DNA from: an uncultured Calditrichota bacterium
Lineage (GTDB): Bacteria > Calditrichota > Calditrichia > JAJRVZ01
DNA: 64,000 nt
Assembly: GCA_964489835.1 (NCBI GenBank)
Contig: CAZBBC010000005.1
Coordinates: 26,123 to 90,122, forward strand
Direction of reading: 5' to 3'
The translations under genes and the position numbers were made by a program. The notes under the pieces were generated by a model. That model did not search any database, was not told where the DNA came from, and was given only the letters and a program-made list of their open reading frames with translations. Every line of letters begins with the position of its first letter. The first letter of the stretch is position 1. Of this stretch, positions 13,678 to 59,740 are shown piece by piece.

Positions 13678-13906
13678 TGAATTTTTTTTAAGGGTAACTT
13701 TTTCCGGACTAAAATTAATTACTCATCCGATATTTTTGCCTGTCGAATCTAAATAATTCACTAACCTGAATTATTCACCACGAAGATCATCCTTCGAGGT
13801 TTATGCTTTTATAGCCAAAAACTTTGTTGTTTTAACAAAATTTTTACAAACTGAATATATTCATTTAACGCAGAGACCGCAGAGATTTTTTTATAATACA
13901 TTTTTT

Positions 13907-14008
13907 AATTCGTGAAAATTCGTGTCAGTCTGCGCCTGATCCGGCTTCGACGGATAATTCGTGGACTTCTTTTTTGGATTGCAGCAATAGGCTGCGGCAT
14001 GAATAGAC
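13907..14008 (-). repeat. gene-end structured repeat, family A copy 1 (about 97% identical to 21437-21536)
   Basis: aattcgtgtcagtctgcgcctgatccggcttcgacggataattcgtggacttcttttttggattgcagcaataggctgcggcatgaatag; 3 mismatches in 91 nt against the reverse complement of 21437-21527; lies 88 nt 3' of the sialidase-like gene in the same relative orientation as the other copies. Confidence 0.8.
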
Positions 14009-14095
14009 CAGGCTAATTACCCAACCGTAATAAATCTAAAATAATATTTAATACAAACCAATCATTAATATAGGTCATTCGATTTATTGATGAGT

Positions 14096-17607: not shown

Positions 17608-17746
17608 AACCACGAAGCACACGAAGATATTATTATTGATTTTATAGAAAAAATGCAATACTAAAATTTGAACAGGAATTCCTTTATAGATTTACAATAA
17701 ATATTTTTTTTATGCTTTCGTGCTCTTCGTGCGCCTCGTGGTGATT
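17608..17746. repeat. heptamer inverted-repeat element (CACGAAG arms, 90-bp AT-rich core)
   Basis: left aaccacgaagcacacgaag; right ctttcgtgctcttcgtgcgcctcgtggtgatt (RC carries cacgagg/cacgaag/cacgaaa). Confidence 0.7.
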
Positions 17747-17809
17747 AAATTTGTCATAGAACTGTCCTAAATGAAGAATTACAGAGTGTTGAGCCTTGCA
17801 TTATGTCGT

Positions 17810-18760: not shown

Positions 18761-18944
18761 CTTATTCTTCTCTTAGTAATTCGAAATCATTGTTTTTTAA
18801 TATCATAGCACAGCCCAAGGCTGCAAATAAAGAACAAATAATCCGTGGATAAAAGTTTTTGACTGTAAAACAATAATGGTACAATATAATTTAAAAATAG
18901 CAGTTTTAAAATAGTATCATATGTTACGGTATCTGTTTATTTTT

Positions 18945-19000
18945 TGACAGGATAATCCCGACTGGGTCGGGATCCAAAAAACGGACAGGATTTACAGGAT
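18945..19000 (+). repeat. GACAGGAT-flanked hairpin motif, copy 1 (copy 2 at 51016-51074)
   Basis: ttttttgacaggataatcccgactgggtcgggatccaaaaaacggacaggat; 8-bp stem atcccgac/gtcgggat; about 88% identical to 51016-51074. Confidence 0.7.
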
Positions 19001-19347: not shown

Positions 19348-21435
19348 ATGGCCATCTTAAGCAAAGAAAAACAGCTTAAGAAAGAGCTGTCGTTATTCAA
19401 CATTTATACCATTGCCACTGGAGCCACCATTGCCTCTGGTTTCTTTCTGTTACCGGGTTTGGCCTATGCCCAGGCTGGTCCAGCCATGGTGCTTAGCTAT
19501 CTGATAGCGGCAATCCCGGTTATTCCGGCCTTGTTCAGCACATCTGAACTTTCGACAGCAATGCCGCGTGCCGGCGGCATTTATTTTTTCCTGGACCGCA
19601 GTATGGGGCCGCTAATGGGCACCATTGGTGGTATAGGAACCTGGCTGGCTCTGATACTGAAAACAGCTTTTGCATTGGTGGGTATTGGTGCCTATATGCG
19701 TTTGTTCTTACCTCAAATTCCAATGTTACCACTGGCTGCTTTTTTCGCCATTCTTTTTGGTATCGTCAATCTTTTAGGTGTAAAAAAAGCCGGTATCTTT
19801 CAGGGTATATTTGTTATAGGCCTGTTGCTGCTTCTGGGCCTATTTTCAGGAATCGGTTTAACATATTTGAATTTCCAGAATTTCAATGGTTTTTTTGACA
19901 AGGGATTCAATTCAATATTTGCTACCGCCGGTCTTGTTTATGTCAGTTATATCGGGCTTTCTAAGATCGCCAGTGTTTCTGAAGAAGTTAAAAATCCGGA
20001 TAAAACGATACCCTTGGCAATGTTTCTGGCACTGGGCACGGCGATTTTGGTATATACTATTGGTACTTTGGTTATGATCGAAGTGATACCGGCCGAAAAA
20101 TTAACCAACGATCTGACACCGGTAGCCTCCGCGGCCGAAATTATGATAGGAGAGTGGGGCGCGATCTTGATGACCACCGCTGCAATCTTGGCTTTTTTAT
20201 CAGTAGCAAATGCAGGAATTCTCAGTTGTTCACGCTATCCGCTGGCGATGAGCCGTGACCATCTAATGCCCCGTTTTTTGCGCTCTTTCAGTAAACAAAA
20301 AACGCCAAAATACGCTATCCTGATCACCGTAATATTTATTTTACTGATGCTCTTACTCCTTGATCCCGCAAAGATTGCTAAACTGGCCGGTGCCTTCCAG
20401 TTACTTCTTTTTGCACTGCTTTCACTTGCTGTTATTGTCATGAGGGAAAGCCGATTAGATTCTTATGATCCCGGATTCCGTTCCCCCTTATATCCATGGA
20501 TGCAAATTTTTGGGATGATTGCTCCCTGTTGGCTGATCATTGAAATGGGCTGGTTTCCGTCTATTTTTGCACTGGCATTGGTTGGATTGGGCACATTTTG
20601 GTATTTTTATTATGGAAAGAAAAGGGTCGTCAGGGACGGTGCCATTTACCATATTTTTGCCCGTCTTGGTCAGCGACAGTTCGAAGGTCTTGATATTGAA
20701 TTGAGAAGCATTTTAAAAGAAAAGGGTTTGCGTGATAAGGATCCGTTTGATGCTGTCGTTGCCAGTTCTGTATTTATTGATATTAATGAAAAAACTTCTT
20801 TTGAAGAAATCGTAAAAAAGGCCTCCTCAAGTTTATCAAAAAAATTTCACTGCGATGCCAAACTATTAGAAAGATCATTTATGGAGGGTACCCAAGTAGG
20901 GGCAACTCCGGTTTCACACGGTACCGCACTCCCGCACCTTCGTATTCAGGGAATGCCGCATTCTGAAATGATCATGGTTCGCACACAGATCGGCATCACG
21001 GTTGATTTTGATACAAATCTTTTAGGGGAGCAGGATGCGGATAATCCCATATATGCATTATTCTTTTTAGCCAGCCCGGAAGATAATCCGGGGCAGCATT
21101 TACGTATCCTGGCCCAGATTGCCAGCCATGTGGATAATGAAAATTTTATTAATCAATGGCTTGATGCCAATAATGAACAGGAATTAAAAGAGCTGCTTCT
21201 GCGGGAGGACCGGTATATCTCTTTGCAGCTGACAGCTGGTACAACAACCGAAACACTGATTAACTGTGAGATTCGAAACATTGAGCTGCCTGTGGGAAGT
21301 CTGATTGCGATCATTCACAGAAGGGGAGAAATGATAATTCCGAGAGGACAAACGGTTCTGCATGAGCATGACCGTTTAACCATTATCGGTTATCCCAAGG
21401 GTATTCAGGAATTGTACGATAAGTATTTAACCTGA
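19348..21435 (+). CDS. APC-superfamily amino-acid permease fused to PTS EIIA(Ntr/Fru-type) and TrkA_C regulatory domains
   Basis: 695 aa; roughly 12 TM permease domain (aa 1-430); EIIA-2 motif SHGTALPHLRIQG with conserved His; C-terminal TrkA_C-like GSLIAIIHRRGEMIIPRGQTVLHEHDRLTIIG. Confidence 0.8.
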   Translation: MAILSKEKQLKKELSLFNIYTIATGATIASGFFLLPGLAYAQAGPAMVLSYLIAAIPVIPALFSTSELSTAMPRAGGIYFFLDRSMGPLMGTIGGIGTWLALILKTAFALVGIGAYMRLFLPQIPMLPLAAFFAILFGIVNLLGVKKAGIFQGIFVIGLLLLLGLFSGIGLTYLNFQNFNGFFDKGFNSIFATAGLVYVSYIGLSKIASVSEEVKNPDKTIPLAMFLALGTAILVYTIGTLVMIEVIPAEKLTNDLTPVASAAEIMIGEWGAILMTTAAILAFLSVANAGILSCSRYPLAMSRDHLMPRFLRSFSKQKTPKYAILITVIFILLMLLLLDPAKIAKLAGAFQLLLFALLSLAVIVMRESRLDSYDPGFRSPLYPWMQIFGMIAPCWLIIEMGWFPSIFALALVGLGTFWYFYYGKKRVVRDGAIYHIFARLGQRQFEGLDIELRSILKEKGLRDKDPFDAVVASSVFIDINEKTSFEEIVKKASSSLSKKFHCDAKLLERSFMEGTQVGATPVSHGTALPHLRIQGMPHSEMIMVRTQIGITVDFDTNLLGEQDADNPIYALFFLASPEDNPGQHLRILAQIASHVDNENFINQWLDANNEQELKELLLREDRYISLQLTAGTTTETLINCEIRNIELPVGSLIAIIHRRGEMIIPRGQTVLHEHDRLTIIGYPKGIQELYDKYLT

Positions 21436-21436
21436 C

Positions 21437-21536
21437 CTATTCATACCGCAGCGTATTGCTGCAATCCAAAAAAGAAGTCCACGGATTATCCGTCGAAGCC
21501 GGATCAGGCGCAGACTGACACGAATTAACACGGATT
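21437..21536 (+). repeat. gene-end structured repeat, family A copy 2
   Basis: Starts 2 nt after the permease stop codon; reverse complement of copy 1. Confidence 0.8.
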
Positions 21537-21613
21537 AAAACTAAAATAATTATTAATAAATAATAACATCGCTGCGCCGCTGCGAGAAATGAAGAATTCG
21601 AGTACCAAAAATT

Positions 21614-21672
21614 TTGCTAAAAAACAAAGTTTTTGGAATAATAGCATAGCGTAGCGAGATGGGGTGGGGCAG
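21614..21672. repeat. repeat module M (ttgctaaaaaacaaagtttttggaataatagcatag) plus partial GC-rich hairpin-family fragment
   Basis: Module M about 92% identical to 50920-50958; agcgtagcgagatggggtggg is the RC of cccaccccRtctcgctacgct found at 47761, 55040 and 59668. Confidence 0.65.
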
Positions 21673-21699
21673 TAATCCACGAACTTCACGAAATTTATT

Positions 21700-27040: not shown

Positions 27041-27639
27041 ATTTAATTATCAGGGTAATGTTAAATAATATCCATAAGTATTTAATATTTGTTTTTATTG
27101 AATATTGAACAAGGATTAACAATTAACGAATTTTGAAGTAAAGTTGATTTAAAAATTTTTTGCTCATTTTTCCTGGAATACCATCGAAGGCTAACAAAGA
27201 AAAACCGATTTTTATTGTAATTCGAATTATAATTAATAAATTAAGCATATTCCTTTCATACCTGCCCAGATTTTTACTGTAACTAAATTATTTAGTAAAC
27301 TTCCGCTTTCGAGAATGATGACCAGCAGGTGATCGTATTTTTTAATACCCGGCATAAACAATTCTAGTATCAATATAAATCTGCCAATTGAATATTTAAT
27401 TGTAATACTATTTTGTACGCTAACCACGAAAAATATATGGGGAAAATGGTGGGGATAAGAAGAGATTATTAAAGATAAATGTCATGGGGCATAATGTGGA
27501 AAAATCGTAAAGGAAGAAAATATTTTATATATGGAATTATCTCAGCATAAAATTCTTTTGTCTTTTTTCTTTTGTCTTGGATTTGTTTGCAGCCTTGATC
27601 TGTGTTATGAATAGGTTAGGTTAATTAATTGAGGAGGAT

Positions 27640-30381
27640 TTGGCCATGAATCAGCAAAAAATATTAATCACTTTTTTATTGTGTTTATCGCTGGTTTATA
27701 TCCTACCGGCTCAGAGCTGGCATCCTGAAATCACTCACCGACCGCGACTGGTTTTGCTGGAATCGGAAATTGACACGATTCGTGCGCGACTTTCCGAAGG
27801 TGTTTATAATCAACTTTGGAGCAATGATTATACCAGCAGAAAAGGAGCTGCCGTTAATGGTATTTATCAAAAAGCAGGAGAAGAGCAGGATATAAGTCCC
27901 AATACGGAAGAAACGCCGCGAGCCTATGCCGATGTCCGGGCCTGGATCGCCAAACATGCTGCCTTTGTTTATACTATCAATAAAAGGGCAAACGGTATTG
28001 ATAGTCTTAATGCATTTACCGGAGAATCCGATCCCCATCCGCGGGACTGGTATAAAGATCATGCCCTGGAATATTTACAAACCATTGACCCGGGGGTGTT
28101 AGGACCCACAAATCCTTTTGACTTTGTAGACAAGGCTATCTTTGTGGACAACTGGCAATGGCGGGTCAAAGAATTGATCAATTACTGTCAGGCCTATGAC
28201 ATGCTATTGGGTGTCGGGGTGGCGGTCCCGGATACGGTTAAAACTCTTCTGGATCTATTTGCTCATAATCTGTTCCAGAAATATGCATTGGTCCAATCGA
28301 TCCCACAGCAGGTTGGTTTCGACTTCTATCTTATTAGTAAGAATAATCATCGTTTAATGCTCGCGGCTGCCCTGGGCCAGGCGGCGGTTACTTTAAACGA
28401 TTCTGAAAACGCCGGTGCTTGGATTCAACTGGCGATGAGTGTGATTCAGTACGTTCTATTTGAAGACGGTAATGAAGCTTATCAAAGTCTCCGGCAAGTG
28501 GATGCGGATGGCGGCTATGCGGAGGGTCCCTACTATTTAAAATATGTTTTAAAGCATCTGATCCCGTTCTTTATCGCCATGCGAAATTTTAACGGTGACT
28601 GGACAGAGGAATATACCTATGAAAATATTCCGCGCTCTATACAATCGCCCTGGTTTGATCCGGAATACCAGAAAATTTACGACTGGATAACCAAGATCCG
28701 TATGCCTGAGGGACGGTTACCTGCGTTGGAGGATTCATACCAGGATCATTACCTGCCTGATCTGGCGGTCTTTGGGGGATATTATTCCTGGCCTTATCAG
28801 TCATTCGATGATCAGCTTACTAAGGAGGCTTTATTAAACCAGCAACTAACCGATCCTTTTGATTTGAGGATCGAATATGTGGTCGCCGGAAATGCCGGAG
28901 AAACAGAGGTGCCACCGGGGTGGGAAAATGTTCAGGTTTTGCCGGAAGCCGGCAGTGCTGTCTTCCGGAGTGACTGGGGAACAGAGGCCCTATATCTCCA
29001 TTTATACGGTCAACACGATTCGGCCCGGGAATCAGGATCGACCCATGATCATGCCGATGTGACCAGTTTTATTCTGGGGTATATGGGACAGGTTTTGGCA
29101 CTGGATGCAGGATATATAAAATGGGATCAACATTATCGTGTCAATAAACCAGAAAATCATAATTTGATCCTGGTTGACGGCTATGGTCCCAGGCCACCCT
29201 CTGGTCCTATTGTGCGGGTCAATGGTTTTACTCTATCTATCAAAAATGCGCCCAGTCCCACCGATGGTTCCTTTACCACAACCTATATCGCCGACAATTT
29301 TTCATATGTGGATGTACAAACCGAATACGGTCAGCGGTATGAACTGGTCGATTCTCTGGACCAACAGGAAGCCTGGGAATATGTTGAGAGTGACACCACT
29401 GAATTTTCTATGAATAGAGGGGTTCTGTTTGTTGATAATCGTTATTTTGTTATCTGTGATGATCTGGATAATTTAGATAGTGATTTGAAAAATTATCAGT
29501 TTTTATTACATGGTAATGGTGGCGGTACAAGCGGCGGTACCTATGAATCAATCCTTAATGGTGCGGTTTGGACGAGGGACAATGTCAAATTGACGACCCA
29601 GATTACCGCCTTAAACGGAGGGGTAAACTTTAGTGATTCTTTATATACCCATGGAGACGGGTTCAATACCCCTAAGACGCACACCTGCCTCCGGGCCACA
29701 AAGGAGGCGGTGGATACAAAATATTTAAGTGTCTTATTTCCGGACGTAACTGACCGTACGGCGGATTTCTTTGAACAGAGTAACGATACATCGGCCGGTT
29801 TCCTGGTCAACCGTGATCCATTGGCATCTGAAGGACGTTATGACTTTATTTTTACTCAAAAAGACCAGGATTCTTTATATATTCCTGAACAAACGTTTGG
29901 GTCGATGACGATAAAATCTATCCATACCGATGCCGAGCTATTGGTCATGAGTTTTGATAAACAGGATCCGGATAATCCTGAATCAATGAAGATCTTTGGT
30001 AAGTCAATTTCATATTTGACCTATGATGACGGTTATTTTATTTTTAAACCGGATAGCAGTATTACCTCTAATTTTAGTATTATTACAGGAACGCCTGCCA
30101 ATGTCAGTCGTGTACCCACGAAATATACATTGGCCCAGAATCATCCCAATCCATTTAATCCGAAAACAGTTATCAGTTATCAGTTGGCAGGTGGCAGTGA
30201 CGTTGAATTGAGTATTTATAATCTGCTTGGGCAAAAGGTTGCAACACTGGTTTCGGAAAGACGGAAAGCCGGATATCATCAAGTGGAATGGGATGCATCG
30301 TTATATGCGAGCGGGATTTATTATTATAAAATTGTGGCTGGAGAATTTCGATCGGTTAAAAAAATGATACTGCTCAAATAA
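27640..30381 (+). CDS. secreted heparinase II/III-like polysaccharide lyase-family protein with T9SS C-terminal sorting domain
   Basis: 913 aa; signal peptide; GSTHDHADVTSFILGYMGQVLALDAGY resembles the Hepar_II_III HxHxDxxSF motif; C-terminal HPNPFNPKTVISYQL...IYNLLGQKV...YYYKIV is a type-A T9SS CTD. Confidence 0.55.
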   Translation: MAMNQQKILITFLLCLSLVYILPAQSWHPEITHRPRLVLLESEIDTIRARLSEGVYNQLWSNDYTSRKGAAVNGIYQKAGEEQDISPNTEETPRAYADVRAWIAKHAAFVYTINKRANGIDSLNAFTGESDPHPRDWYKDHALEYLQTIDPGVLGPTNPFDFVDKAIFVDNWQWRVKELINYCQAYDMLLGVGVAVPDTVKTLLDLFAHNLFQKYALVQSIPQQVGFDFYLISKNNHRLMLAAALGQAAVTLNDSENAGAWIQLAMSVIQYVLFEDGNEAYQSLRQVDADGGYAEGPYYLKYVLKHLIPFFIAMRNFNGDWTEEYTYENIPRSIQSPWFDPEYQKIYDWITKIRMPEGRLPALEDSYQDHYLPDLAVFGGYYSWPYQSFDDQLTKEALLNQQLTDPFDLRIEYVVAGNAGETEVPPGWENVQVLPEAGSAVFRSDWGTEALYLHLYGQHDSARESGSTHDHADVTSFILGYMGQVLALDAGYIKWDQHYRVNKPENHNLILVDGYGPRPPSGPIVRVNGFTLSIKNAPSPTDGSFTTTYIADNFSYVDVQTEYGQRYELVDSLDQQEAWEYVESDTTEFSMNRGVLFVDNRYFVICDDLDNLDSDLKNYQFLLHGNGGGTSGGTYESILNGAVWTRDNVKLTTQITALNGGVNFSDSLYTHGDGFNTPKTHTCLRATKEAVDTKYLSVLFPDVTDRTADFFEQSNDTSAGFLVNRDPLASEGRYDFIFTQKDQDSLYIPEQTFGSMTIKSIHTDAELLVMSFDKQDPDNPESMKIFGKSISYLTYDDGYFIFKPDSSITSNFSIITGTPANVSRVPTKYTLAQNHPNPFNPKTVISYQLAGGSDVELSIYNLLGQKVATLVSERRKAGYHQVEWDASLYASGIYYYKIVAGEFRSVKKMILLK

Positions 30382-34108: not shown

Positions 34109-34203
34109 TGGGTCCTTGTTTATCGGTTAGACAATGTGAAATTAATAATATTCCAGGAATTATAAAATTTTTGTATATTATGCTATTATGACTAATAGCT
34201 TAT

Positions 34204-34283
34204 ATCCACGGATTACACGGATTAAAACTAAAATAATAATAATTTTTAGATGAAATCCGTGCTAATCCGTGTAATCCGTGGAC
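34204..34283. repeat. heptamer inverted-repeat element (CACGGAT arms)
   Basis: atccacggattacacggatt ... aatccgtgctaatccgtgtaatccgtggac; followed at 34297-34330 by a family-A fragment tttgcagcagtgggctgtggtatgaatagatc. Confidence 0.7.
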
Positions 34284-34343
34284 AAATTCTTTTATGTTTG
34301 CAGCAGTGGGCTGTGGTATGAATAGATCAAATTAAAAAGCAGA

Positions 34344-37910: not shown

Positions 37911-38000
37911 AACCACCACGCCAGTAGGCGGATCCGCCCACTGGCGGGCTCAGAGTGATCCTCTGTGGGCTCTGCGTGCCCGCCTACTGGCGTGGTGGTT
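37911..38000 (-). terminator. intercistronic hairpin (21-bp perfect stem, 48-nt loop) with U-tract between ccoNO and ccoQ; candidate attenuator/partial terminator
   Basis: aaccaccacgccagtaggcgg (37911-37931) and ccgcctactggcgtggtggtt (37980-38000) are perfect reverse complements; on the minus strand the stem is followed by AUUUUUUAUAAAAUU; the stem begins at the ccoNO stop codon. Confidence 0.65.
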
Positions 38001-40126
38001 TAGTTCTTATTATCCCCTTTAATGTCTGTTCCTAGTCGTTGCAGATAGGCAATCAGAGCAATGATTTCCTTATCTGATTTGGTCTCAATACCGGCTTCCT
38101 TCAGCCTTGCCTTGATCTCTTCTGCCTGATGTTTAAGATCGGGTAGCGCTTTTTTATCATAATCGGTTGGATAAGGAACACCAAGACTTTGCATGATACG
38201 GATTTTCCGCTCTGTGGAAGACGTATTTAGTTGATTGGTAATCAACCAGGGAAAGGGCGGCATTATCGAACCCGGTGACATGAGTTCCGGTTCTAGCATA
38301 TGATTATAATGCCAGGCATCAGGATATCGGCCACCCTCACGGTGCAGATCAGGACCGGTCCGTTTTGAGCCCCATTGGAAAGGGTGATCGTAAACGAATT
38401 CTCCGGCTTTTGAATATTCACCGTATCGTTCCGTTTCTGATCGGAACGGACGGATCATTTGTGAGTGACAGTTATAACAACCTTCCCGCACATAAATATC
38501 CCGGCCTTCCAGTTCAAGAGGTGTATATGGTTTTACACTCATGATGGTTGGTATATTAGATTTAACCAGAAACGTTGGAATTACCTCAACCAGGCCACCG
38601 ATTAATATGGCAATAATGGCGGCGATAGAAAACTGTATCGGCCGGCTTTCCAGCCAGCGGTGGGCATATATCTTACCGGTTTCATGGATTTTCTGCACTT
38701 GGAGGGGAAGGGCTTTTGCCTTTTCATCGGCGACGATCGAGCCTCTTTTCACTGTTCTGGCCAGATTGACTATCATAAAGACAACACCGGTATAATAAAG
38801 TGTACCGCCTATGGCCCGCAGGATGTACATGGGAACAATCTGTAATACGGTTTCGAGAAAAAGTGGATATTGCAGATAACCCTCGGCAGTAAATTCTTTC
38901 CACATCAAACCCTGGGTAATACCGGCCCAATACAAAGGTATGACGTAGAAGATCATCCCCAGGGTGGCTATCCAGAAGTGAAAATTTGCCAGTTTTATAG
39001 AGAAAAGTTTCGTATTGTAAAGACGTGGAATCAGCCAGTAAAGAATGCCAAAGGTAAGTAAGCCATTCCAACCCAGGGTACCGACATGTACATGGGCGAT
39101 TGTCCAATCGGTATAATGCGAGAGCGCATTAATGCTTTTTATTGCCAGCATAGGACCTTCAAAGGTGGCCATGCCGTAGGCGGTAACTGCAACGACCATA
39201 AATTTGAGTATGGGATCTTCGCGCACGCGATCCCAGGCCCCACGAAGCGTAAGCAAACCATTCAACATCCCCCCCCAGGACGGAGCGATTAGCATGATAG
39301 AAAATACCGTGCCTAAGGATTGTGCCCAGTCGGGGAGAGCGGTATAGAGTAAATGATGTGGTCCGGCCCAGATATAGATAAAAATTAAGGACCAGAAATG
39401 GACAATTGACAAACGATAAGAATAAATCGGCCGGTTAGCCGCTTTTGGAAGAAAATAATACATCAAACCCAAATAAGGTGTGGTAAGAAAAAAAGCAACG
39501 GCATTATGACCATACCACCATTGAACAAGGGCGTCCTGCACGCCGGCATAAACCGGATAACTCTTAAGAAAGGTCACCGGAATTTCAATTGAATTCACCA
39601 CATGCAGAATTGTTATTGTAAAGAAAGTGGCAAGATAAAACCAGATGGCCACATACATATGTCTTTCTCGGCGTTTTATAATCGTACCGATCATATTGAT
39701 ACCAAAAGCCAGCCAAATAACAGCGATAGCAACATCGATCGGCCATTCCAGTTCCGCATATTCCTTGCTGGCGGTAATACCGAGGGGTAAGGTGATGGCG
39801 GCCGATAAAATGATCAGCTGCCAGCCCCAGAAGTGAAATTTACTCAGGAAATCATTGTACATCCTTGATTTGCACAAACGCTGCAAAGAATAATAGATAC
39901 CCATGAATATGCCGTTTCCAACAAAAGCAAAAATAACTGCATTGGTATGTAAGGGCCGGATTCGGCTGAACGTGGTGAAGGGAATACCGAGATTCCATGC
40001 AGGCAAGAACATCTGGAAAGCAATGATAAGGCCGACAAGCATGCCGACGGAACCCCACAGTATCGTAGCAAATGCAAAGTTCCGTACTATCCTGTTGTCA
40101 TAACTAAATGTCTCAAACCCAGCCAT
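38000..40126 (-). CDS. ccoNO: cbb3-type cytochrome c oxidase fused subunits I+II (CcoN-CcoO)
   Basis: 708 aa; 12+ TM haem-copper oxidase domain with conserved His; C-terminal CcoO part with CYNCHSQMIRP. Confidence 0.95.
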   Translation of the reverse strand: MAGFETFSYDNRIVRNFAFATILWGSVGMLVGLIIAFQMFLPAWNLGIPFTTFSRIRPLHTNAVIFAFVGNGIFMGIYYSLQRLCKSRMYNDFLSKFHFWGWQLIILSAAITLPLGITASKEYAELEWPIDVAIAVIWLAFGINMIGTIIKRRERHMYVAIWFYLATFFTITILHVVNSIEIPVTFLKSYPVYAGVQDALVQWWYGHNAVAFFLTTPYLGLMYYFLPKAANRPIYSYRLSIVHFWSLIFIYIWAGPHHLLYTALPDWAQSLGTVFSIMLIAPSWGGMLNGLLTLRGAWDRVREDPILKFMVVAVTAYGMATFEGPMLAIKSINALSHYTDWTIAHVHVGTLGWNGLLTFGILYWLIPRLYNTKLFSIKLANFHFWIATLGMIFYVIPLYWAGITQGLMWKEFTAEGYLQYPLFLETVLQIVPMYILRAIGGTLYYTGVVFMIVNLARTVKRGSIVADEKAKALPLQVQKIHETGKIYAHRWLESRPIQFSIAAIIAILIGGLVEVIPTFLVKSNIPTIMSVKPYTPLELEGRDIYVREGCYNCHSQMIRPFRSETERYGEYSKAGEFVYDHPFQWGSKRTGPDLHREGGRYPDAWHYNHMLEPELMSPGSIMPPFPWLITNQLNTSSTERKIRIMQSLGVPYPTDYDKKALPDLKHQAEEIKARLKEAGIETKSDKEIIALIAYLQRLGTDIKGDNKN

Positions 40127-42834: not shown

Positions 42835-42953
42835 CTTCGAAGAACACGAAGCACACGAAGTTTTTAATTATTAATATAATTTTTGTGTTAACTTCGATTT
42901 TGATAAAAAAATAGTCAATATAATATCTTTGTGACCTTCGTGGACTTCGTGGT
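42835..42953. repeat. heptamer inverted-repeat element (CACGAAG arms)
   Basis: cttcgaagaacacgaagcacacgaag ... ctttgtgaccttcgtggacttcgtggt. Confidence 0.7.
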
Positions 42954-43128
42954 AAAAGCTTTTTATATGTTCTAATTTGAACGGCCACAGGCCGTCGCTC
43001 ACCCAAGGGTGAGCCCTAGGATCTTTGCGTAATCTTTGTGGTCAAAAATTTACCCTGCTAGTTACTAATTTTGATTAGTTTTTATCTTCAGGGTAATCTG
43101 ATAATACATAAAATTTAGAAAAAGCCGT

Positions 43129-43839: not shown

Positions 43840-43868
43840 TATCCAAAACTTTTTTAAAATAGTACATA

Positions 43869-43883
43869 TTGATAATTTATCAA
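43869..43883. promoter_or_regulatory. perfect 7-1-7 palindrome TTGATAA-T-TTATCAA, 30-44 nt upstream of the DsbD_2-like start; candidate Fur-family-type operator
   Basis: ttgataatttatcaa; resembles Fur/Zur/PerR 7-1-7 boxes. Confidence 0.3.
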
Positions 43884-44044
43884 TAAAACATCATAAGTGT
43901 CTGGTTAGAAGGTAAATCATTGAAAATTTTTACCATAATTTCAAATGGTTTATAGATTTAAGAAACATAAAGATTTAATTAAAAGAACTCGCTCTAAATT
44001 TCCGCCAAAGGGCAGATCCGCCTACCGGTTCGACCTTTCTTTAG

Positions 44045-44160
44045 TATAGACTGGAGACATAGGTAACACTATATTTCCTTTTTACTTGGACAAAAACTCT
44101 CCCCCTATCCCCCTCTTTTGAAAAGAGAGGGGGAATTTTATTCATGAAACGTAATGAAAA
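44045..44160 (+). repeat. intergenic tandem-duplicated element, copy 1 (hairpin ccccctct/agaggggg + T-tract + atgaaacgtaatgaaaatgcaag)
   Basis: About 70-nt core near-identical to 44425-44510. Confidence 0.7.
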
Positions 44161-44394
44161 TGCAAGATTTCTTCTAAATGCAATAAAGAAAAGAATAGTA
44201 TTTGCAGTAAATATTAATCGGATTCTGCTCCCCTTCTCTTCTCAAGAGAAGGGGCTGGGGGATGAGTTTTTTAAATATAAAAAGAATAAACTTTATTTAA
44301 CCGGACACTAATGATATAAAATACTTAATAAGTAGGGATAATCAAAAAATAATAACTACCCCTCCATTGTTGTTTTGACCAGAGAGATGGATAA

Positions 44395-44525
44395 AAGGAT
44401 CCGGGGACATAGTTTACACTTTTTGTATCTTCTACTTGGATATAAACTCTCCCCCTGACCCCCTCTCTTGAAAAGAGAGGGGGAATTTTATTCATGAAAC
44501 GTAATGAAAATGCAAGAATTCTTTA
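44395..44525 (+). repeat. intergenic tandem-duplicated element, copy 2
   Basis: acttggatataaactctccccctgaccccctctcttgaaaagagagggggaattttattcatgaaacgtaatgaaaatgcaagaattc. Confidence 0.7.
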
Positions 44526-44632
44526 ATAGAAATCAAAATAATGGGTGGGAGAAGGAAATGCTTTGTTAAATTTTGAGGGTTTAATTAAATTCTTCAACAG
44601 ATACAAAGATTTATTAAAAATTGAGGTTGTGA

Positions 44633-47760: not shown

Positions 47761-47836
47761 ACCCACCCCGTCTCGCTACGCTCGACACCCCTCCCTATCC
47801 GGCAAAGCCGGACAGAGAGGGGATGGGTGATGGTCA
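47761..47836 (+). repeat. GC-rich nested-hairpin element, copy 1
   Basis: acccaccccgtctcgctacgctcgacacccctccctatccggcaaagccggacagagaggggatgggtg. Confidence 0.75.
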
Positions 47837-48034
47837 CTTATGAATTATTTGTTTGCAGCCCTGGGCCGCGTTATAAATAGTTCAGGTTAATAATTCGGGC
47901 AAAAATATTCTTAAAATAAATTAATTTACATTTAAAAACAAATTGAATTAAATTTTGAAAACGATAAAAAATAAATATCGGAAAACAATCTTTACAATTT
48001 CTGCATCGTTAAGGATATAATCAGTCTTGTTATT

Positions 48035-50666: not shown

Positions 50667-50744
50667 TCAGCTAATTAGCCTGATCTATTCATAGCGCAGC
50701 GATGCTGCAAACAAAAAAAAATAGTCCACGGATTCCACGGATTT
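50667..50744 (+). repeat. gene-end structured repeat, family A copy 3 (diverged), starts 6 nt after the GT22-like stop
   Basis: gctaattagcctgatctattcatagcgcagcgatgctgcaaacaaaaaaaaatagtccacggattccacggatt. Confidence 0.65.
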
Positions 50745-50919
50745 TATTTAAAAATTATTATTATTTTATTTTTTAATCCGTGCAAATCAGTTTCCGCCAT
50801 GTTGTATATCCCGTTTCACGGGATAGGAGGATCCGCTGTGGCGGATAATCTGCGTCATCCGTGTTCTATTAATATCGCTGCGGCGCTGTGAGAAATTAAT
50901 TATTCCGCTTTGTACAAAT

Positions 50920-50958
50920 TTTGCTAAAAAAACAAAGTTTTTTGGTATAATAGCATAG
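50920..50958 (+). repeat. repeat module M copy 2
   Basis: gctaaaaaaacaaagttttttggtataatagcatag. Confidence 0.65.
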
Positions 50959-51015: not shown

Positions 51016-51074
51016 TAGACAAGATAATCCCGACAAAGTCGGGATCCAAAAAACGGACAGGATGGCAGGATAAA
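51016..51074 (+). repeat. GACAGGAT-flanked hairpin motif, copy 2
   Basis: ttttttagacaagataatcccgacaaagtcgggatccaaaaaacggacaggat. Confidence 0.7.
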
Positions 51075-51190: not shown

Positions 51191-51440
51191 AATAATCGTA
51201 TCCTCGTAGAGGATAAATTATTGTAATAAAATATGTATAAACCAATACCACATCCTCGTAGAGGATGCATTATTGGTGGTATTTGTAGATTTAGTGAAAA
51301 ATATTTAATTGAATATTTTGATTAAATTCCTCAAAACATGTTGACGGTTCTATAATATCCTCAATTATAAATCCTCTACGAGGATTATATATTTTTGGGT
51401 TACGCTTTATTTTCTACAATAATGAAACCTCTACGAGGTT
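51191..51440. promoter_or_regulatory. array of four ATCCTC-GTA-GAGGAT-type palindromes upstream of the M1 aminopeptidase gene
   Basis: Sites 51200-51214, 51252-51266 (atcctcgtagaggat), 51371-51385 (atcctctacgaggat), 51426-51440 (aacctctacgaggtt); sites 1-2 sit in longer hairpins (aataat.../...attatt; ccaata.../...tattgg). Confidence 0.4.
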
Positions 51441-51551
51441 AATAATCTAATTTATTCAAATGGTATAAAAGGGAAACTTACACTTATCTAAAGAACATAA
51501 TATTTATGTTATAAACTATAAAGGCATCCATATTTATAAATCAATCGTTTT

Positions 51552-55039: not shown

Positions 55040-55110
55040 ACCCACCCCGTCTCGCTACGCTCGACGCCCCTCCCTGTCAGGCTTTGCCAGACAGGGAGGG
55101 GTGACCTTTA
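55040..55110 (+). repeat. GC-rich nested-hairpin element, copy 2
   Basis: gacccaccccgtctcgctacgctcgacgcccctccctgtcaggctttgccagacagggaggggtgac; 14 nt after the xth stop. Confidence 0.75.
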
Positions 55111-57001: not shown

Positions 57002-57049
57002 TGAATGCTCACCAGCTTAAAATGGGTAGTTTAAAAAAATAACCACAGA

Positions 57050-57130
57050 GTAAACAGAGTAAATATTTAATATTTATTGAATTAAAGAATTTATTTTTTA
57101 CCCCTCTCTGTGGCCTCTGTGGTTGTGTTT
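57050..57130. repeat. heptamer inverted-repeat element (CACAGAG arms)
   Basis: aaccacagagtaaacagagtaaa ... ccctctctgtggcctctgtggtt. Confidence 0.7.
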
Positions 57131-59559: not shown

Positions 59560-59667
59560 AAACTTACCTTTGATTTTTGATAATTCTTTTGCTAAAATCT
59601 CAATCTTTATATTAATTACCATATTAGCATTACGCAGCCTATGGCTGCAAACAAAATAAATATTTCT

Positions 59668-59740
59668 AACCCTCCCCCAGCCCCTCCCTGCTTGCAGGGA
59701 GGGGTGTCGACCCGCCTCAGGCGGGGAGACGGGGTGGGTA
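59668..59740 (-). repeat. GC-rich nested-hairpin element, copy 3 (inverted)
   Basis: cccctccctgcttgcagggagggg ... gagacggggtgggt (RC of acccaccccgtctc). Confidence 0.7.

Follow-up and report, generated by a model that had tools for sequence, protein, structure and literature searches.

Intergenic spacers of an uncultured Calditrichota bacterium carry ordered composites of short sequence modules that probably (a likelihood of about 70%) represent a family of mosaic interspersed repeats specific to Calditrichia, non-coding and prone to strong folding, which has multiplied and been rearranged through copying from one member to another. The composites were recognised in a 64,000-nt stretch of contig CAZBBC010000005.1, called here the window, to which all coordinates refer. 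Three of them are complete: region 1 (21427-21669, plus strand), between a permease gene and a TerC gene, region 2 (50675-50957, plus strand) and region 3 (13761-14016, minus strand). Their left end, A, is composed of a conserved block (A5) and a short hairpin (Ahp), the further modules being named H, X, M, D4 and D6; loci fetched from metagenome-assembled genomes (MAGs) or metagenomes bear L-numbers. Both ends of the composite are conserved, and its interior is a variable set of hairpin cassettes.

The original prediction held that the spacers of regions 1 and 2 contain the same modules in the same order. Reading and aligning the two bore this out, as both carry A, CACGGATT repeats, X and M. 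Region 1 is laid out as follows:

21427..21445, plus strand: A5, the conserved 19-nt left end TTAACCTGACCTATTCATA, holding the permease stop codon TGA (21433-21435); consensus from 76 copies
21446..21478, plus strand: Ahp, a short GC hairpin (GCAGC gtatt GCTGC), then the A-rich tract AATCCAAAAAAGAAGT; paired in the minimum-free-energy (MFE) structure
21479..21536, plus strand: degenerate H cassette, CACGGATT / CACGAATT units split by a small inserted hairpin ATCCGtcgaagCCGGAT; near-identical to 13907-13964 (minus strand)
21537..21567, no strand assigned: AT-rich core aaaactaaaataattattaataaataataac, family D12; loop found elsewhere in both orientations relative to A
21568..21606, plus strand: X, ATCGCTGCGCCGCTGCGAGAAAT, plus a degenerate inverted A5-like foot, jointly a diverged inverted A; identical X at the orthologue of another locus, L148
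21607..21648, plus strand: M, short form, with TTGCTA at 21614-21619, a 17-nt spacer, AATAAT at 21637-21642 and the end ...GCATA
21649..21669, plus strand: truncated distal D4 GCGTAGCGAGATGGGGTGGGG; D4 is complete in the orthologous spacers L144 and L145
21677..21694, plus strand: tandem CCACGAAC / TTCACGAAA units beside the TerC stop; kept in the L144 and L145 orthologues

The corresponding layout of region 2 and its right flank is:

50675..50725, plus strand: A, with A5 at 50675-50693, Ahp (GCAGC gat GCTGC) at 50694-50712 and the A tract
50726..50782, plus strand: H cassette, two CACGGATT units, a 31-nt AT-rich loop and AATCCGTG; on the minus strand a T run follows the hairpin, terminator-like in the scan
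50783..50863, plus strand: extra small hairpins ATCCCGTttcACGGGAT and GGATCCGCtgtgGCGGATaatC, and one more CATCCGTG unit
50874..50915, plus strand: X plus the degenerate inverted A5-like foot
50916..50957, plus strand: M, with TTGCTA at 50921-50926, a 19-nt spacer, TATAAT at 50946-50951 and the end GCATA
51018..51071, plus strand: D6, the GACAGGAT hairpin module; the same module follows an M-like block at 18946-19000

The matched blocks comprise A (21427-21478 and 50675-50725), M (21607-21648 and 50916-50957), the CACGGATT copies (21480-21487 and 21529-21536; 50727-50734, 50736-50743 and, inverted, 50775-50782) and X, a block that had gone unnamed, at 21568-21590 and 50874-50896 with 21/23 identical positions. 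The identity of about 92% given for M agrees with a 36/38-nt core differing by two single-base homopolymer indels and one substitution. What had been described as a partial GC-rich hairpin fragment in region 1 is the truncated D4, identical at 20/21 positions to a module that is complete at 47761-47822 and 55040-55101, and the GACAGGAT hairpin expected after region 2 is indeed there, with a second copy at 18940-18991 (90% identical). Such shared blocks are not chance: the family-A pattern has six window matches against 0.00 expected from shuffles and the M-core pattern two against 0.00, region 1 missing the latter pattern through a 1-nt deletion only. Some details of the first description needed correction. 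The supposed heptamer CACGGATT is an 8-mer, and its inverted repeat exists in region 2 but not in region 1, where both full copies are direct, the sole inverted partner is a 6-nt ATCCGT directly adjoining the first of them, and what borders the AT-rich core on the right is X, not AATCCGTG. Moreover, region 1 does not start at 21437 but at 21427, taking in the permease stop codon.

That these are composites and not loose collections of modules is indicated by their order in other genomes. A metagenome scan made with the M core alone, which avoids selecting on A, returned at least 120 loci. When M copies with at least 350 nt upstream were searched for A5 (taken as the 19-nt block with up to four mismatches), it lay upstream in the same orientation, 105-430 nt away, in 43/88 cases among the matches listed, as against two upstream but inverted and one downstream. 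Starting from A, M was found downstream in the same orientation in 9/23 cases, and none of the other three arrangements occurred (0/23). Independent shuffling of the modules without a preferred order, the outcome that had been named as decisive against a composite, is therefore at odds with ratios of 43 to 3 and 9 to 0. At least 61 distinct A-to-M composites, 129-450 nt long, were collected. Besides region 3, at least four partial copies were found in the window and more in public genomes, in line with the suggestion that further copies be sought. The two origins first proposed both hold in part: an ordered composite does recur, but with exchangeable hairpin cassettes inside and not as a diverged duplicate; a modular grammar describes well the preferred order and orientation and the varying interior cassettes, but some hairpin modules also stand alone.

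The left end consists of A5 (TTAACCTGATCTATTCATA; consensus TTAaCCTGATCTATTCATA), Ahp and an A tract, Ahp being flanked by CATA-N on its 5' side and followed by AAWCAAA. At Ahp, 84% of 74 A copies form a stem of 5 bp or more, compared with 13.5% of shuffles; the sixth pair varies between C-G and A-T, and several copies have a wholly different GC hairpin at this place. In the MAG loci, A is followed downstream by a hairpin of tandem 9-10-mers round an AT-rich loop and then by AAATTTTGCTAAAAnAACAAAGTTTTTGGCTATAATAGCATA. The interior cassettes include arrays of CACGGATT/CACGAATT around an AT loop, a nested GTCATTCC...GGATGAC hairpin, AGCAGAG/CTCTGCG arrays, AGTGACTAAAG arrays and GC-rich hairpins, D4 among them. 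In the CACGGATT hairpin the AT-rich loop can lie either way round relative to A (TCATCTAAAAATTATTATTATTTTAGTTTT or its reverse complement), as seen when L006 and window positions 34206-34281 are compared with L003, L014 and window positions 21537-21567, and it looks as if the loop may have been flipped between its inverted arms.

At the right end, X and a foot of the type AAATGAATATATCCAGTTTG precede M, and X plus foot read in reverse correspond to a diverged A5 plus Ahp. The short form of M has TTGCTA and TATAAT separated by 17 nt, and a long form, representing about one third of copies, has an insert of about 27 nt between the hexamers; conservation stops abruptly at ...GCATA, 6 nt beyond the -10-like hexamer. 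There are about 20 copies in which M stands directly before Ahp in place of A5, the units thereby chaining head-to-tail. Relative to dinucleotide shuffles, the three window composites fold with z-scores of -4.7, -3.6 and -3.6; in region 3 (z = -3.6) the two ends pair with each other in the MFE fold (TTAGCCTGGTCTATTCA with TGAATAATTCAGGTTAG). The features of mosaic repeats that were tested are all present, namely dispersed copies at unrelated loci, preferred order and orientation, an extragenic non-coding location and extensive secondary structure.

Region 3, which had escaped notice, was revealed by reading the larger intergenic regions and by a four-way alignment. Regions 1 and 2 are not nearest relatives, since over aligned positions region 1 is 87% identical to region 3 and 76% identical to region 2. 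The third composite comprises:

13761..14016, minus strand: region 3, third full composite, 87% identical to region 1, with 94 identities in the first 100 nt
13998..14016, minus strand: A5
13976..13997, minus strand: Ahp
13907..13964, minus strand: H
13844..13886, minus strand: X plus foot
13802..13843, minus strand: M
13778..13799, minus strand: small hairpin
13761..13777, minus strand: right inverted end TGAATAATTCAGGTTAG

How such composites change was best seen at orthologous sites. The TerC-permease spacer was compared in four relatives whose TerC proteins are 89-96% identical, and in all of them A5 and a hairpin lie at the permease stop. In the relatives with 94% and 96% identical TerC, a complete D4 comes directly after Ahp and the H-X-M stretch is missing; in the window, H-X-M is present and D4 is truncated exactly at ...GCATAGCG|TAGCGAGA; the relatives at 89-90% combine one half of an H cassette with another hairpin stem. 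In its Ahp loop and tract region 1 is similar to region 3 and not to its own orthologues, in its outer A5 it is similar to the orthologues, and the close match between the first 100 nt of regions 1 and 3 exists despite unrelated flanking genes. The simplest reading would be that a contiguous stretch from a region-3-like donor was copied into the resident A of region 1. A similar picture is offered by the spacer upstream of a URO-D-like gene, where the composite of a strain whose protein is 96% identical combines a region-2-like H and the exact X of region 1 with a long-form M and an extra D6 insertion; in an 89% relative the modules are different once more. Empty and filled versions of a site were also sought among the fetched loci; an all-against-all BLAST gave two orthologous pairs, both of which show module replacement and no clean insertion. 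In a strain pair about 91% identical in the flanks (L081:345-820 and L014:3059-3339) the adjacent intergenic hairpin modules are completely replaced and a 230-nt deletion lies inside a gene.

Copying of contiguous stretches from one copy into another may thus be the main route by which the family spreads and is reshuffled. The mechanism could be gene conversion, or else template switching, with shared modules or short microhomologies such as AGCGCAGCG as anchors, and such copying would explain why module order is kept, interiors are exchanged and no target-site duplication is left.

Several points weigh against this view. Gene conversion is deduced from sequence patterns, and the copies come only from the window, MAGs and metagenome contigs. 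The counts from metagenome copies, taken among the matches listed, include orthologues from related strains and are not fully independent. A5 and a hairpin are kept at one and the same site in strains with about 10% divergence in the flanking proteins, the M core and those of its flanks not forced by the search pattern are nearly invariant in the listed metagenome copies, and M-bearing composites are present in several species-level MAGs; together these observations suggest selection on the ends, that is, a function, instead of passive repeat behaviour. Finally, some copies have clear, pairing terminal inverted repeats, as in MITEs (miniature inverted-repeat transposable elements) derived from transposons.

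It could be asked whether the family is a classical, non-autonomous MITE that bears TTAACCTGATCTATTCAT ... ATGAATWATYCAGGTTAA as its terminal inverted repeats and is moved in trans by an insertion sequence (IS) transposase encoded elsewhere in the genome. The inverted ends that pair in the region 3 fold, also found in L003, L004, L005 and L017 (and degenerate in regions 1 and 2), fit this explanation, as do the short, AT-rich, highly structured copies lying between genes in either orientation, and the contigs that often end within repeats. However, the flanking direct repeats that the original prediction proposed to look for are missing: the flanks of the at least 61 composites share no bases between left and right, so that no target-site duplication is seen. 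Orthologous sites exchange interiors and keep the A end, with no presence or absence of a whole unit, and in most copies M lies outside the inner inverted end. As to a transposase partner, Pfam found no transposase, integrase or Y1 domain among the 46 open reading frames (ORFs) of the window, and, in loci totalling about 0.9 Mb, inspection by eye only of the 15 largest ORF families revealed no recurrent transposase-like family. A MITE origin is on these grounds unlikely.

The missing target-site duplication would instead be expected of a single-strand element of the type of IS200/IS605, or of the repetitive extragenic palindromic (REP) sequences with their REP-associated tyrosine transposase (RAYT), in which the unit would start at Ahp and be inserted or cut just 3' of CATA by a Y1 (HUH) transposase. 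Such a view is attractive because the 95 distinct Ahp copies are preceded by A5 in 61 cases and by M in 19, left neighbours that both end in CATA-N, and most of the remaining 15 still have (T)TCATA-N before them even when the rest of A5 is unrecognisable. In addition, synteny in L145 is lost at a rearrangement breakpoint exactly at the CATA|Ahp junction, and the hairpin appears to be kept as a structure, with stems replaced outright in some copies. On the other hand, the 64 kb searched yielded no Y1 transposase, the tag is neither GTAG nor CGTC (the tags by which most REPs are reportedly sorted; PMC3733652), A5 is conserved over 19 nt, far beyond a 4-5-nt target, and the CATA flank may just be the best-conserved part of A5. 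This makes a single-strand element quite improbable. Even more speculative is the idea that the CATA|hairpin junction, with Ahp after either A5 or M, is a dedicated recombination site at which a site-specific or single-strand (HUH-type or integron-like) enzyme would exchange non-coding hairpin cassettes between loci; if it were so, one would be dealing with a mobile regulatory-cassette system, outward-facing and promoter-like at its ends, instead of a repeat that recombines passively. A true integron attC site or gene cassette was rejected, as RYYYAAC matches a single copy by chance but not the consensus, the context is one of housekeeping genes, and the window contains no integrase.

The position of the composites relative to genes raises the question of function. 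No A5 copy lies inside an ORF (0/77), and all window segments related to composites are intergenic. The name "gene-end element" first given to A turned out to be a misnomer, because what adjoins its outer edge is a divergent gene start in 40 cases, often at a distance of 4-60 nt, and a co-oriented stop in 23, often with overlap; the TAA, TGA and TAG triplets of A5 often serve as stop codon of the gene running in. The hairpins flanked by A and T tracts might act as terminators or RNA-stabilising structures at gene boundaries, and the two ends may be outward-facing and promoter-like. T runs come after the H hairpins on the strand opposite A (terminator-like in the scan) and an A tract comes before them on the A strand, a layout that would suit a bidirectional terminator, and A in reverse complement gives TTGWTT, the hairpin and TATGAAT, a weak resemblance to a promoter. 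The idea that A itself is the intrinsic terminator for the gene upstream was discarded, given that its sense-strand hairpin precedes an A run and not a T run.

These features could be combined in a functional boundary cassette, with H as bidirectional terminator and with M and the reverse complement of A (the hairpin acting as spacer between its two promoter-like motifs) as portable outward promoters. M matches a sigma-70 promoter, with a TG just upstream of the -10-like hexamer, and its conservation stops approximately where transcription would start; minus-strand T runs with a terminator-like score follow the H hairpins; A often lies close to divergent starts, as counted above; and the copy at 34 kb has its ends facing two divergent genes. 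A precedent exists in the pneumococcal boxA and boxC, which reportedly stimulate the expression of genes lying downstream (PMC3049150). Against this stands the orientation of M relative to the next gene, co-oriented in 46 cases and convergent in 45, a lack of bias that led to M being rejected as promoter of the next gene; short-form M alone gives 27 co-oriented and 16 convergent, a split that is not significant. The M of region 1 points into the 3' end of TerC, the insert of about 27 nt destroys hexamer spacing in about one third of copies, the 19-nt spacer of region 2 exceeds the 16-18 nt of sigma-70 promoters, and the judgement of M relies on a sigma-70 consensus that may not be that of Calditrichota. 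A boundary function for the whole cassette is thus possible, if tentative.

A small-RNA gene family is the least probable of the explanations considered. In it, M would be the promoter, Ahp a 5' hairpin, the A-rich tract a single-stranded segment and the H hairpin with its T run the terminator, copies with A5 instead of M being versions derived from 3' untranslated regions. The direct junction of M to Ahp in the approximately 20 copies noted above would favour it, together with the right succession of promoter-like element, hairpin, and hairpin plus T tract, but variability is greatest in what would be the RNA body, a promoter-like element is missing in front of most Ahp copies, and there is no Rfam match. 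At the gathering score Rfam gave zero matches in the window and 18 loci, and at an E-value threshold nothing in region 1 and only chance-level matches around region 2; as tRNA and tmRNA genes were also absent, a known RNA family was dismissed. A DnaA-box reading of TTATCCACG was likewise abandoned because it fits some copies only and the arm sequences vary widely.

The confinement of the mosaic repeat family to Calditrichia is supported by a scan of one genome per prokaryotic species with the family-A pattern, which found 21 loci, 20 of them in Calditrichota/Calditrichia MAGs from four assemblies; the remaining locus, in Flavobacterium and apparently inside a coding sequence, is probably a chance match. 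The exact TerC protein of the window is also encoded in a JGI metagenome contig, where region 1 is unchanged, and one orthologous contig is labelled Calditrichia_1. Viral contigs contained no match to the A and M patterns, and a phage or plasmid origin was rejected on this basis. Contigs of MAGs and metagenomes that end inside repeats include L009, L011, L013, L148 and others, and the family therefore seems to break short-read assemblies.

The family is of the same kind as the BIME, NIME and BOX repeats, and no published description of its sequences was found in the literature. The bacterial interspersed mosaic elements (BIMEs) of E. coli, studied by Gilson and Hofnung, are reportedly built from REP sequences, also called palindromic units (PU). 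Like BIMEs, which are mentioned in PMC3049150 and PMC5317091, the composites are extragenic mosaics of short palindromes and other motifs in fixed order and with alternating palindrome orientation (here A and, as its degenerate inverted counterpart, X with the foot), are often found at gene 3' ends, fold strongly and cause no target-site duplication. They differ in that the sequences are unrelated, the tag is CATA and not the GTAG or CGTC by which most REPs are reportedly sorted (PMC3733652), the interior contains long AT-looped arrays of tandem 9-10-mers, one end is promoter-like, and no RAYT partner is present among the 46 window ORFs.

Neisserial intergenic mosaic elements (NIMEs) consist of variable repeat units delimited by short inverted dRS3 repeats. 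The parallel lies in variable cassettes between short conserved junction repeats that form hairpins, the chain being here ...M-Ahp-cassette-M-Ahp..., and in intergenic location, lineage specificity and recombination breakpoints. Unlike in NIMEs, whose existence and size are documented in PMC3049150, the junction is composite (M plus Ahp, about 60-90 nt), the phylum is different, and no phage or recombinase is known to go with the family. BOX elements of Streptococcus pneumoniae, organised as boxA - boxB(n) - boxC (PMC3049150), share conserved end modules, a variable middle, extensive secondary structure, an intergenic position and ends that may stimulate expression of neighbours; however, the boxB middle is a tandem array of one module instead of several unrelated hairpin cassettes, and the BOX ends resemble ISSpn2, whereas neither the window nor, on inspection by eye, the largest ORF families from about 0.9 Mb of loci yielded an insertion sequence of that sort. 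With Correia elements and other MITEs (PMC3049150) the family has in common terminal inverted repeats in some copies, AT-richness, a high degree of base pairing and possible outward promoters, but it lacks target-site duplications and exchanges cassettes instead of inserting or excising whole units. For the phylum, the only repeat found in the literature is that of Caldithrix abyssi, an 18-nt palindrome, aAACCGTTgaAACGGTTt, with about 38 exact intergenic copies, which its authors liken to REPs (PMC5317091). It has another sequence and is a single palindrome with no conservation outside the 18 nt and no mosaic.

The intergenic DNA of this little-studied, uncultured lineage, whose phylum is reported to be abundant in marine sediments, is taken up by the family to a noticeable extent. 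The family marks rearrangement breakpoints, appears to break metagenomic assemblies and supplies stop codons to incoming genes. With ends conserved across species and interiors exchanged between strains that differ by only 4% in flanking proteins, it also offers a natural experiment on how mosaic repeats such as BIMEs and NIMEs arise and persist. Were its ends to act as promoters, the family would supply transcription signals in mobile form.

Composites from other genomes have matches in nine of the window's intergenic segments, and all copies in the window lie between genes with Pfam annotation. The flanking genes are of housekeeping type and in mixed orientations (amino acid permease with EIIA and TrkA_C domains, TerC, GT22, M1 peptidase, ECF sigma factor and cbb3 oxidase). 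Besides the three full composites, the related parts of the window are:

34178..34335, minus strand: partial composite between divergent genes, with A at 34296-34335, H at 34206-34281 (three CACGGATT units, AT loop, two AATCCGTG units) and an M-like end at 34178-34205; about 70 nt upstream of the ECF sigma gene
18802..19000, plus strand: partial composite, with Ahp at 18802-18828, a right H arm and a diverged M-like, promoter-like block at 18840-18890, and D6 at 18946-19000
27585..27624, minus strand: solo A (A5 plus Ahp), its outer edge 15 nt from the start of a plus-strand gene at 27640
47761..47890, minus strand: A at 47851-47890, then complete D4 at 47761-47822, the A-to-D4 order of L144, the region 1 orthologue
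59587..59739, plus strand: degenerate M at 59587-59632 joined directly to Ahp at 59633-59652, then a D4 variant at 59681-59739
55040..55101, minus strand: solo complete D4, a GC-rich nested hairpin

Solo hairpins of the H-cassette design were also observed at 2000-2067, 17609-17747, 42843-42956 and 57045-57125. Each consists of a tandem pair of 9-mers (CACGAAG or CACAGAG), a loop of 20-100 nt rich in AT and the 9-mers inverted, with one arm about 40-80 nt upstream of a minus-strand gene start, and the arms match within a copy and differ between copies. In the spacer separating region 2 from the M1 peptidase gene, a small perfect palindrome, ATCCTCGTAGAGGAT or its complement, occurs four times within 250 nt (51199-51444) and is terminator-like in the scan. 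The 793-nt spacer 43840-44632 contains a 121-nt direct repeat (44053-44173 and 44403-44523, 87% identical and 350 nt apart), each copy having a GC-rich hairpin (ctccccct...agagggggaa), and a long GC-rich nested palindrome, accaccacgccagtaggcgg...ccgcctactggcgtggtggt, is found at 37915-37995, just downstream of the cbb3 oxidase gene (38000-40126). Ordinary intrinsic terminators are also present in this genome, as indicated by a cold-shock-protein-like gene, identified by eye at 2337-2600 on the minus strand, which has a canonical terminator of GC hairpin and T run, aaaaaaaccccggctacaattagccggggtttctc.

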